64,000 nt of DNA from positions 595,978-659,977 of the forward strand of contig CAVUJU010000002.1 in NCBI GenBank assembly GCA_963741925.1, given 5' to 3'. Source of the DNA: an uncultured Acidobacteriota bacterium (GTDB lineage Bacteria > Acidobacteriota > Thermoanaerobaculia > Multivoradales > DATKCC01). The translations under genes and the position numbers were made by a program. Positions 7,599 through 12,938 of this stretch are shown one piece after another; position 1 is the first letter of the stretch; each line of letters opens with the position of its first letter. A model generated the notes under the pieces. It saw only the letters and a list, made by a program, of their open reading frames with translations, was not told where the DNA came from and made no database searches.

Positions 7599-10022
<2,424 letters not shown>

Positions 10023-10097
10023 CGACGCGTCTCCTCCTCCCCTCTAACGCACGAGGCCGCGCGAGGTTGCGAAACGGGGGCGAACGCCGGGCGGCCA

Positions 10098-10260
10098 AGT
10101 GACCCGTCAACCGTCAAGTGACGTGTCCTGGCGGTCCCTCCCGCCGCTGGCGGCGTTGCTCCTCCTCGACGTAGGCACCGCTACGCCTGCGTCGGAGCGC
10201 CTGGCCAGCGACGAGAAATCCTCGCCAGATACCCTGTCACTTGACGGTTGACGGGTCACT
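10098..10260. repeat. perfect 25-bp inverted repeat pair (AGTGACCCGTCAACCGTCAAGTGAC) separated by 113 bp
   Basis: Positions 10098-10122 and 10236-10260 are exact reverse complements. Each arm contains a tandem GTCAAC/GTCAAG half-site. Confidence 0.85.
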
Positions 10261-10540
10261 AGCCGGCCGGCCCGTCGTTCTCGGGCTCGCCCGCGCCCGT
10301 CACCTCGGCGAGCAGGGCGCGGGCCTCCTCCTCGTCCTCCCGCGGCACCCGGAGGACCGCCCCGAGCCCCCGCTTGCCGAAGAAGCCGGGCGTCGTCAGG
10401 GGAAAGAGGCCGAGCGAGGACTCCCCCTCGACGACGAAGGGGATGTCGGCCGAGGCGAGCACCGACTTCGCGAGGCCGAGCTCGGCCATGTCGTGGGTCT
10501 GGAGCAGCTCGACCCAGGCTTCGCTCCCACCGCCGGCCAT
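10259..10540 (-). CDS. DUF2007-like small protein
   Basis: 93 aa (MAGGGSEAWVELLQTHDMAELGLAKSVLASADIPFVVEGE...). Its ATG lies 2 nt after the gdhA stop. Confidence 0.45.
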   Translation of the reverse strand: MAGGGSEAWVELLQTHDMAELGLAKSVLASADIPFVVEGESSLGLFPLTTPGFFGKRGLGAVLRVPREDEEEARALLAEVTGAGEPENDGPAG

Positions 10541-10542
10541 GG

Positions 10543-11880
10543 TCACATCACCCCGTAGGCGAGCATGGCGTCGGCCACCTTGACGAAGCCGGCGACGTTC
10601 GCCCCCTTGACGTAGTTGACCCGGCCGTTGTCGCGGCCGTACTCGACGCACTGCTCGTGGATGCGCCGCATGATCCGCTGCAGCCGCTCGTCGACCTGCT
10701 CGCGGGTCCAGTTGAGGCGGATCGAGTTCTGGGTCATCTCGAGCCCGGAGATCGCCACGCCGCCGGCGTTGGCCGCCTTGCCGGGGCCGTAGAGGATCCC
10801 CGCCTCCTCGAAGCGGTGGGCCGCCTGCCAGTTGGCGGGCATGTTGGCGCCCTCGGAGACCAGGCCGCAGCCGTTGGCCAGCAGCCGCCCGGCGGCCTCC
10901 TCGTCGATCTCGTTCTGGGTGGCGCACGGGAAGGCCATGTCGCACGGCACCTTCCAGGGGTGCTCGCCGGCGTGGAACTCGCAGCCGTACTCGTCGGCGA
11001 AGCTCTCGAGGCTCGAGCGGCGGGCGGTCTTGAGCTCGATGACGAAGTCGAGCATCTCGGGGGTCAGGCCGTCCGGGACGTAGATGAACCCGGAGCGGTC
11101 CGAGAGGGTCACCACCCGGCCGCCCAGCTCCATGAGCTTCTGGGCGGTGTACTGCGAGACGTTGCCCGAGCCCGAGATCACGCAGCGCTTGCCCTCGACG
11201 TCCTCGCCGTGCTGGCGCAGCATGCTCTGGGCGAAGTAGACGCAGCCGAAGCCGGTCGCCTCGGTGCGCACGAAGCTGCCGCCGTAGGAGACGCCCTTGC
11301 CGGTCATGGCGCCGGTCCACTCGTTCTGGAGGCGCCGGTACTGGCCGAACAGGTAGCCAATCTCCCGGCTGCCCACGTTGATGTCGCCCGCCGGCACGTC
11401 GACGTCCTTGCCGATGTGGCGGAAGAGCTCGCTCATGAAGGACTGGCAGAAGCGCATCACCTCCATGTCCGAGCGGCCGTGGGGATCGAAGTCCGAGCCC
11501 CCCTTGGCGCCCCCCAGCGGCAGGGTGGTGAGGCTGTTCTTGAAGGTCTGCTCGAAGGCGAGGAACTTGAGCACCGAGAGGTTGACCGAGCTGTCGAACC
11601 GAAGGCCCCCCTTGTAGGGACCGATGGCGCCGTTGAACTGCACCCGGTAGCCCCGGTTGACCTGCACCTCCCCCTGGTCGTCCTGCCAGCAGACCCGGAA
11701 GGAGAGGATCCGGTCGGCCTCGGTCATGCGCTCGAAGATCTTCTCCGCCTCGTAGCGCGGGTTCTGGTTGATGAAGGGGATCACCTTCTCGGCGACTTCG
11801 CGGACGGCCTGGTGGAACTCGGTCTCACCCGGGTTGCGCCGCATGAGGGACGCCATGAACGCATCGAGGTCCATCGCCAT
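10543..11880 (-). CDS. gdhA: NADP-specific glutamate dehydrogenase
   Basis: 445 aa with canonical GDH motifs (KGGLRF, GGAKGG, GSGNVSQY) and full-length similarity to GdhA. Confidence 0.95.
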   Translation of the reverse strand: MAMDLDAFMASLMRRNPGETEFHQAVREVAEKVIPFINQNPRYEAEKIFERMTEADRILSFRVCWQDDQGEVQVNRGYRVQFNGAIGPYKGGLRFDSSVNLSVLKFLAFEQTFKNSLTTLPLGGAKGGSDFDPHGRSDMEVMRFCQSFMSELFRHIGKDVDVPAGDINVGSREIGYLFGQYRRLQNEWTGAMTGKGVSYGGSFVRTEATGFGCVYFAQSMLRQHGEDVEGKRCVISGSGNVSQYTAQKLMELGGRVVTLSDRSGFIYVPDGLTPEMLDFVIELKTARRSSLESFADEYGCEFHAGEHPWKVPCDMAFPCATQNEIDEEAAGRLLANGCGLVSEGANMPANWQAAHRFEEAGILYGPGKAANAGGVAISGLEMTQNSIRLNWTREQVDERLQRIMRRIHEQCVEYGRDNGRVNYVKGANVAGFVKVADAMLAYGVM

Positions 11881-12059
11881 GGGATCGGGGTCCTCCGTCT
11901 GGGGTGTGAATCGGGATGACGCAGTGGCGATCGGAGGAGCCGACCGCCCATCGGCTGGGTGTCTCGGGGGTTTTTCCTAGTCTGCCACAGATCGATCCAC
12001 GGGGCGAGCCGCCCGCGCCGCCACCGCCGCCACCGCCGCCGCGACGAGGGCGAAGCCGT

Positions 12060-12938
12060 TCACTCCGGGGCCGTCGCCGGGTCGAGGATCCAGCCCTCGG
12101 CCGGGTCGGCCCCGGGGGGGATGCCGAAGCCGTCGTCGCGGCGGGCCCAGGCCCAGGCGGCCTGGACGGCTCCGAGGACCGCGTCGAGCAGGTCGCCACG
12201 GGGGTCGTCGATCGCCCCGGCGGCCAGGAAGTGGCCGATCTCGACCGTCACGCCGTAGCCCGCGGCGAGGCGCGGCGAGCGCAGGCCTTCGAGGAGCTTG
12301 CGGCGGGCGTCGCGGCGGGCCTGCGCCTGGCTCGGCTTGGCGTCCTTGTAGGGCCGCTTGCCGATCAGGTGGCGGGCGACCAGCGCCGGGTAGATCTCGA
12401 GGACGGTCCGCGGGTCGCCGGTCGGGCGGCAGGGGCGGACGTCGAGGGGAGCCTGGAGCAGCCGGGGCGCCCCTTCGTAGAACATCCGGGCGAGGGGTGG
12501 GCGGACCCACTTCATGGGGCTCTTGGCCCGGGCGAGCCGGTCCGTCGGCCGCAGGTGCTCCTTGTCCCCCGCGGGCCGAGAGGCCCGGTACATCTCGAGC
12601 AGCTCGCCCCACTCGACCTTGGTCATGGCGGCCACGCGCTGAACGCAGCCCTCCCAGCTCGCGGGCCACTCCAGGTCGCGCAGCAGGCGCCGCGGCTGGC
12701 CGAACGGGAAGTCCATGCCGGCCACCCAGGGGCCGGGCCGCTCGAGGCCGCGATCGAGCTGGGCGAAGCTCGTCAGGCGCAGCAGGTCGCGCACCCGGAG
12801 CCGGTCGCCCTCGAGCTCGCACTCGGCCACCGCGATCGGCTTCGAGCGGCTCGGCGCGGAGGTGAAGTCGACGCCGTAGACGCGCACGGGCGGCAGTGTA
12901 CCGGAGCCACCGCCGCGAGCCTGTAGACTCTCGCCCAT
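12060..12938 (-). CDS. DUF429-like (RNase H-fold) protein
   Basis: 292 aa, N-terminus VRVYGVDFTSAPSRSKPIAVAECE. Its start codon shares the CATG with the divergent znuC-like start at 12937. Confidence 0.4.
   Translation of the reverse strand: MGESLQARGGGSGTLPPVRVYGVDFTSAPSRSKPIAVAECELEGDRLRVRDLLRLTSFAQLDRGLERPGPWVAGMDFPFGQPRRLLRDLEWPASWEGCVQRVAAMTKVEWGELLEMYRASRPAGDKEHLRPTDRLARAKSPMKWVRPPLARMFYEGAPRLLQAPLDVRPCRPTGDPRTVLEIYPALVARHLIGKRPYKDAKPSQAQARRDARRKLLEGLRSPRLAAGYGVTVEIGHFLAAGAIDDPRGDLLDAVLGAVQAAWAWARRDDGFGIPPGADPAEGWILDPATAPE

Follow-up and report, generated by a model that had tools for sequence, protein, structure and literature searches.

A perfect inverted repeat downstream of gdhA-DUF2007 in an uncultured Acidobacteriota bacterium very probably bounds a 161-bp MITE of the IS630 type

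Stowaway represents the eukaryotic class of MITEs derived from Tc1/mariner elements, with TA as both target and duplicated sequence, and a cyanobacterial counterpart, Nezha, is linked to IS630-like insertion sequences (ISs). Nezha, reportedly described by Zhou and colleagues in 2008 (listed in PMC10969869), is said to show filled and empty sites and a duplicated TA, as does the element presented here; the two differ in phylum and sequence, and the present element is GC rich and located mostly at stop codons.

Bacterial MITEs are typically shorter than 200 bp, carry TIRs with TA at their termini, and yield long stem-loop transcripts (PMC2229807). The 107-bp RUP of Streptococcus pneumoniae, attributed to IS630-Spn1, resembles our element in being non-autonomous, in having TIRs like those of an IS630-family IS, and in inserting into (and duplicating) TA at mostly intergenic positions (PMC2229807). 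However, RUP has arms of 9 bp rather than 24 bp and a length of 107 bp rather than 161 bp, and the sequences are unrelated; compared with RUP, the present element has a G+C content of about 68%, resides in an uncultured Acidobacteriota host, and forms one long hairpin over its whole length. Correia (NEMIS) elements of Neisseria come close in other respects, with TIRs of ~24 to 26 bp, a TA duplication, a length of ~105 to 155 bp, and long stem-loops (PMC2229807, PMC10969869), but they contain promoters and an IHF site and their parent transposase is not known, whereas here no promoter consensus was found and a probable parent type of the IS630 family can be identified. Correia hairpins are cut by RNase III (PMC2229807, PMC10969869), which, by analogy, would be a plausible by-product here. 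IS630 and ISY100, bacterial members of Tc1/mariner, insert into TA and duplicate these 2 bp, and their transposase binds the inverted repeats via two HTH motifs (PMC2170065); the same paper cites Tenzen & Ohtsubo (1991) for the CTAG preference of IS630. Target, duplication, and CTAG preference are all shared by the element reported here, which differs in containing no transposase and of whose putative cognate IS only a 124-bp end was seen.

This element is situated in a 64-kb window (the whole stretch of 64,000 nucleotides that was analyzed). It is repeated at dispersed sites, with a fixed length, TIRs of 24 bp, a TA duplication, and a preference for CTAG, and it is absent from the orthologous site in a relative. 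We consider it highly probable (roughly 0.9) that positions 10099 to 10259 represent a 161-bp MITE copy, derived from, and presumably mobilized in trans by, an IS of the IS630/Tc1-mariner type. The family is a new, previously undescribed one of IS630-type MITEs in uncultured soil Acidobacteriota, with two arm subtypes and a fixed length of 161 bp.

The inverted arms and their surroundings

The perfect 25-bp inverted repeat noted in the sequence-only reading (AGTGACCCGTCAACCGTCAAGTGAC) was recovered at 10098 to 10122 (plus strand) and 10236 to 10260 (minus strand); the arms show 0 mismatches and are spaced 113 bp apart. These were the only two arm matches with up to 3 mismatches in the window, and none of 100 dinucleotide-preserving shuffles produced two arm matches. 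Since the outermost pair of the 25-mer (A...T) is part of the palindromic TA duplication, the TIRs proper measure 24 bp. The neighboring genes were, as had been proposed, gdhA, a DUF2007 gene, and a duplicated MacB_PCD/FtsX permease gene (Pfam). The placement of the arms between them held as well, except that the right arm is not strictly intergenic but overlaps the DUF2007 stop codon (10259 to 10261). The features of the locus are as follows.

10099..10259, no strand: MITE body (putative), 161 bp, A-type copy; bounds from the filled/empty comparison with locus L006 and from the flank table
10099..10122, plus strand: left TIR, GTGACCCGTCAACCGTCAAGTGAC, 24 bp, with two tandem copies of CCGTCAA; homologous to IS630-family IS ends
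10236..10259, minus strand: right TIR, perfect reverse complement of the left TIR
10123..10235, no strand: interior, 113 bp, an imperfect palindrome that extends the hairpin; almost invariant among copies
10260..10261, no strand: target-site duplication, right copy, TA; the L006 empty site has a single TA
10097..10098, no strand: target-site duplication, left copy, AA; one substitution from TA
10259..10261, minus strand: DUF2007 stop codon TAG, made up of the TA of the duplication and G, the first base of the element
10259..10540, minus strand: DUF2007 gene, 93 aa (PF09413, 9e-10), its stop codon being the insertion target
10543..11880, minus strand: gdhA, glutamate dehydrogenase, 445 aa (ELFV_dehydrog, 2e-85), upstream and co-directional
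7599..10022, minus strand: duplicated MacB_PCD/FtsX permease gene, 807 aa (Pfam)

All three genes are thus on the minus strand, and the permease ATG lies 76 nt past the left end of the element (74 nt past the AA duplication). No transposase gene is present in the 161 bp; the only open reading frames (ORFs) within the element are two mirror-image frames of 50 codons, which are a product of the palindrome.

The GTCAAC/GTCAAG half-sites claimed for each arm do exist, in the form of a 7-bp tandem CCGTCAA-CCGTCAA, but their interpretation as regulator sites was not supported; they are better read as part of a transposase-binding end. Beyond the arms, the host flanks (10081 to 10097 and 10261 to 10277) are partly complementary and extend the repeat to 42 nt at 83%. 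This extension is missing in the single other copy checked for it (L004) and reflects a locally palindromic, GC-rich target rather than part of the element.

Dispersed copies and empty sites

Copies were searched for in two ways. First, a 20-mer core was scanned against one genome per species, which yielded four further loci (L001 to L004), all on one 475-kb contig of the uncultured Acidobacteriota MAG MFD01721.bin.1.17. Their flanks are all different and hold unrelated genes, such as an SDR and a CMD-family gene next to the L001 copy and an alpha/beta hydrolase gene next to that of L002. Identity to the window copy is 97.6% for L004 (4 of 164 positions differ), 92% for L003, and 91% for L001; the L002 copy is left-truncated. 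Second, the two open frames running through the element were translated and used as protein queries, returning six database "proteins" (P0006 to P0011) that are ORFs running into related copies. The contigs behind these matches, from four metagenomes, contain full-length copies in L009, L010, L011, L015, and L016. In P0006 to P0011, the C-terminal ~50 residues are translated through the MITE (...VVRQPSIDGSWRSFTPLAALLLLDV...), and these entries are either annotation artifacts or gene-MITE fusions, of which annotators should be aware.

Across the window, the one MAG, and the four metagenomes, this amounts to nine full-length copies, every one of exactly 161 bp; a truncated copy and a solo end were also recovered. 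The TIR arms were found in all copies, and the window itself holds a single copy. A scan of JGI metagenomes with the 20-mer gave one match (L005), an isolated 20-mer in an unrelated context of lower GC content without the element, which we treated as chance. Two scans of viral contigs, one for the arms and one for the interior, gave 0 matches, and a distant blastn search of PLSDB plasmids gave none either. The family could be used as a strain-level marker.

Two of the copies, L001 (6215 to 6375) and L003 (4185 to 4345), are chimeras, with one half carrying an A-type (window-like) arm and the other half being B-type (metagenome-like), and the interior of L001 is inverted relative to that of L003. 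Such a structure points to recombination or template switching among the subfamilies; the mismatched arms probably leave these chimeric copies immobile.

In eight of the nine full-length copies, TA is present at both flanks; in the window copy, the left flank is AA and the right flank is TA. As to the wider target (N-TA-N), six copies reside in CTAG and one each in GTAG, CTAC, and TTAG. A 4-bp duplication, as expected of IS5-like elements, was considered and rejected, as it is mismatched in 4/9 copies in the flank table, versus 1/9 for TA. Two independent copies (L004, position 355; L009, position 10263) share a C-to-G change at the final base of the right arm (GTCAG-TA); in L004, this change accounts for the presence of GTAG on both sides of the copy.

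Two comparisons of filled and empty sites are available. The first involves L006, the orthologous gdhA-DUF2007-permease locus in a related MAG, from which precisely the 161-bp segment is missing. The empty site of L006, ...ccggccgggTAGGCCGTCCGGCGTTCGCCCC... (...GGG-TAG-GCC...), has a single TA, where the minus strand of the window reads ...ccggccggcTA[GTGACCC...161 bp...GGGTCAC]TTGGCCGCCCGGCGTTCGCCCC.... At the nucleotide level, L006 and the window are 91% identical in gdhA and DUF2007 and 87% identical in the permease gene, and the blastn alignment is broken exactly at the insertion point (query 1622/1785). In L015, the element splits a gene; deletion of the element together with one TA restores an ORF of 82 aa with a complete DUF433 domain (profile positions 1 to 56 of 56; E = 7.5e-21). 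Both comparisons show that the element was inserted. The L006 permease (10242 to 12783) was not called as one gene but as an opposite-strand ORF of 618 aa without a Pfam match and a 211-aa FtsX fragment, which likely reflects frameshifts in a long-read MAG or a pseudogene.

From what is known of the IS630 family, a DDE transposase would bind both arms through its N-terminal HTH domains, with the tandem CCGTCAA motifs as its likely contacts, excise the element by double-strand cuts, and paste it into a TA, which host repair would then duplicate. Here, the transposase would have targeted the TA within the TAG stop of DUF2007 (context, C-TA-G). The element starts with G, which rebuilds TAG and leaves the DUF2007 protein unchanged. 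The spacer from the DUF2007 stop codon to the permease ATG measures 74 nt in L006 and 236 nt in the window, and the insertion would have lengthened it from about the former to the latter.

The identical arms had been taken to argue for a recent origin, a reasonable view given the 97.6% identity of the window copy to one from another genome, compared with just 87 to 91% for host orthologues. In our opinion, the perfection of the arms very probably reflects a young copy and two ends that have to fit one transposase, rather than a regulatory function for the host. Host orthologues of the window and L006 lineages diverge by 9 to 13%. The contig names suggest a common assembly for L006 and L001 to L004, in which case the family was still active, or was exchanged, after the two lineages had split.

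Ends shared with IS630-family elements

The first 124 bp of L010 contain the 3' end of an IS630-family transposase gene, the encoded 37-codon C-terminus of which (...DARIKLKRLYPSFED, followed by the stop codon) matches residues 306 to 338 of the DDE_3 transposase in L004 (tblastn). This 3' end runs into a terminal repeat, CCGTCATTTGAAGATTGACAGACCAC, followed by TA. With the contig cut after 124 bp, one IS end is visible, and it matches the L003 MITE arm (CCGTCAATTGAAGATTGACGGACCAC, followed by TA) at 24 of 26 positions and the A-type arm of the window at 18 of 24. By these matches, the MITE ends share homology with a terminal repeat located just behind a transposase gene of the IS630 family. 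Some 35 bp downstream of the IS end (L010, ~148 to 310) are CRISPR-like repeats (GTTTCAATCCACGCCCCCGCGCGGGGGGCGAC), two of them full and one partial, with spacers of 34 to 35 nt.

A complete IS630-family IS (DDE_3, 5e-26; HTH_32 and HTH_23) was found in L004 (852 to 2073), 500 bp from the MITE copy of that locus, with an A/T run at the overlap of its two ORFs. Its ends read TA-GTACC...GGTAC-TA, and its arms differ from the MITE arms. Directly abutting this IS is a solo MITE end (L004, 836 to 851; GGTTGACGGGTCAC, followed by TA), into the TA of which the IS has inserted. To the left of the solo end, an ORF on the minus strand (~660 to 830) is missing its N-terminus, as though the element had cut it off; by eye, we take its product to resemble a hicA-type toxin (KGSERIIYHPD...).

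The IS ends in L012/L013, L014 (DDE_3), and L004 share an ...AC-TA architecture, and in L012/L013 and L014 the stop codon of the transposase gene lies inside the terminal repeat. The GTCAA/TTGAC motifs of the MITE arm lie where the transposase gene of a related IS has its final codons and its stop, and they are presumably part of the transposase-binding site.

A tblastn search of the window and all loci, with the IS630 transposase of L004 as the query, found none in the window. For the cognate transposase, we used a chimeric query, composed of the 37-aa C-terminus and 9 residues (eight from the L004 homologue and one arbitrary), which in the search for a full-length enzyme returned only fragments of 36 to 37 aa, namely, in L012 and L013 at contig ends and in L014 in a decayed IS. 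Such fragment-only matches are expected of a multicopy IS in short-read assemblies. No full-length autonomous element whose two ends both match was recovered.

Of the roles proposed in the sequence-only reading, that of a MITE with TIRs is the one borne out, by the dispersed copies, the TA duplications, the two filled/empty comparisons, and arms homologous to the end of an IS630-family IS.

Stop codons, hairpin folding, and competing explanations

All five copies from the DNA search (window and L001 to L004) are located at the exact end of an ORF, with TAG made up of the duplication and G. The upstream gene is supported by Pfam in the window, L001, and L002 and is a predicted ORF in L003 and L004; in L002, the TAG has since changed to GAG, and the following TAA codon now stops translation. 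Copies from the protein search are biased in the opposite direction, toward read-through frames and one true gene disruption (L015). As the ends of the element read TA-G-TGA..., insertion at the TA within a TAG or TAA stop codon rebuilds TAG and adds an in-frame TGA, which is indeed present inside the window copy after the rebuilt DUF2007 stop.

In the window, CTAG occurs 23 times versus 173 expected from base composition (~7-fold depleted; genome G+C, ~70%), and ~11 of these 23 sites fall at the ends of ORFs that are 100 codons or longer. With CTAG this scarce and half of it at ORF ends, a CTAG preference plus selection against gene disruption suffices for the stop-codon pattern. A CTAG-seeking transposon in a GC-rich genome would thus end up on stop codons without harm to the protein. 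Counts of GTAG and CTAC are strongly asymmetric over the whole window (367 versus 73). One might go further and propose that the family is adapted to stop codons as safe harbors, with the hairpin acting as a 3' stabilizer or insulator on which the host depends. We regard this as rather doubtful; plain CTAG preference with purifying selection explains the pattern equally well, and gene-internal copies exist (L015).

The same holds, more strongly, for the idea that the segment is an RNA hairpin evolved by the host, i.e., the terminator or attenuator suggested in the sequence-only reading, or an mRNA stabilizer, that tunes the permease relative to gdhA-DUF2007 or uncouples it from them. As the 113-bp interior is itself an imperfect palindrome, the region folds as one long hairpin, the outcome of the folding that the earlier reading had called for. 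The fold is very stable on the minus strand, on which all three co-directional genes lie (10080 to 10280 as RNA, -144.6 kcal/mol, z = -11.9). The 165-nt element alone gives -117.3 kcal/mol as minus-strand RNA, -108.9 kcal/mol as plus-strand RNA, and -61.2 kcal/mol as single-stranded DNA (z = -10.2). MITE hairpins in transcripts are, moreover, substrates of RNase III/E (PMC10969869). However, the minus-strand sequence beyond the stem, CUUGGCCGCC, does not supply the U-tract that, together with a short GC-rich stem, defines an intrinsic terminator, and a scan of 9800 to 10600 for sigma-70-like promoter and intrinsic terminator consensus sequences found 0 sites. An Rfam search (evalue mode, 9000 to 11500) gave only chance-level matches, the best scoring 21 bits versus a gathering threshold of 90. 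Furthermore, the segment is precisely missing at the orthologous locus, and the same 161 bp occurs beside unrelated genes and even within a DUF433 gene.

Nor does covariation point to a selected RNA structure. In a 7-copy alignment (covariation term, +1.77), compensatory double changes were seen at four pairs, all in the arms, where they separate the A-type arm (window and L004) from the B-type arm (metagenome copies), and interior pairs are either invariant or singly broken. Covariation limited to the arms is what two ends coevolving with one transposase would predict. A hairpin evolved by the host for regulation is therefore, in our judgment, very unlikely and at most a side effect of a transposon insertion. 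As a by-product of the insertion, an effect of the ~80-bp hairpin on read-through mRNA, and with it on expression of the downstream permease, is possible; other MITEs are known to be cleaved by RNase III at their arms and to act as promoters or terminators (PMC10969869), and such by-products could apply here.

A different mobile family could have been involved, either an IS5-type MITE that duplicates 4 bp (CTAG) or a REPIN, a pair of REP sequences mobilized by a tyrosine transposase of the RAYT type. Most copies are indeed flanked by CTAG or GTAG tetranucleotides, with GTAG on both sides in L004, REPINs form long hairpins, and REPs carry GTAG tags (PMC3733652). Nevertheless, both versions are highly unlikely given the arms' homology to the end of an IS630-family (DDE_3-type) IS. 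The 4-bp duplication fits the flanks less well than TA, as described above, and REPINs leave no target duplication, whereas the empty sites here have exactly one TA; at the retrieved loci, no RAYT gene was noticed in passing. In addition, REPs and REPINs consist of palindromic units of 20 to 40 nt, and here the unit is 161 bp long.

The sequence-only reading had also suggested that the arms are paired operators, at which a transcription factor recognizing GTCAAC would control the permease, and two identical 24-bp sites with internal tandem repeats some 75 to 240 bp upstream of the permease ATG would suit such a role. The orthologous promoter region lacks both sites, however, identical sites flank unrelated genes, and the same sequence is the transposon end in a related IS. 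Among the called genes of the syntenic loci, no regulator gene stands out, and we deem paired operators extremely unlikely. A candidate regulatory site can thus very probably be struck off, the repeats being the ends of a transposon, i.e., selfish DNA, rather than operators or an evolved attenuator.

An inverton, in which a site-specific recombinase acting on the arms flips a promoter in the 113-bp interior, is next to negligible; while inverted repeats around a ~100-bp segment upstream of a gene are its typical geometry and the L001 interior is opposite in orientation relative to its A- and B-type arms, the 9800-to-10600 scan found no promoter-like site, inversion of a palindromic interior would change little, the copies are dispersed with TA duplications, and no recombinase was present among the called genes within 10 kb at the syntenic loci.

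Finally, in a second relative (L007, 10325 to 10430; L008, 6128 to 6233), another palindromic insert of ~95 bp directly follows the TAG stop codon of DUF2007, with arms CCTCCAGAGCTTGTGAATGAATC... and ...GATTCATTCACAGGCTCTCCAGG. A copy of this insert with 75% identity is located in L001 (5477 to 5539), which points to a second dispersed palindromic family using the same landing site.
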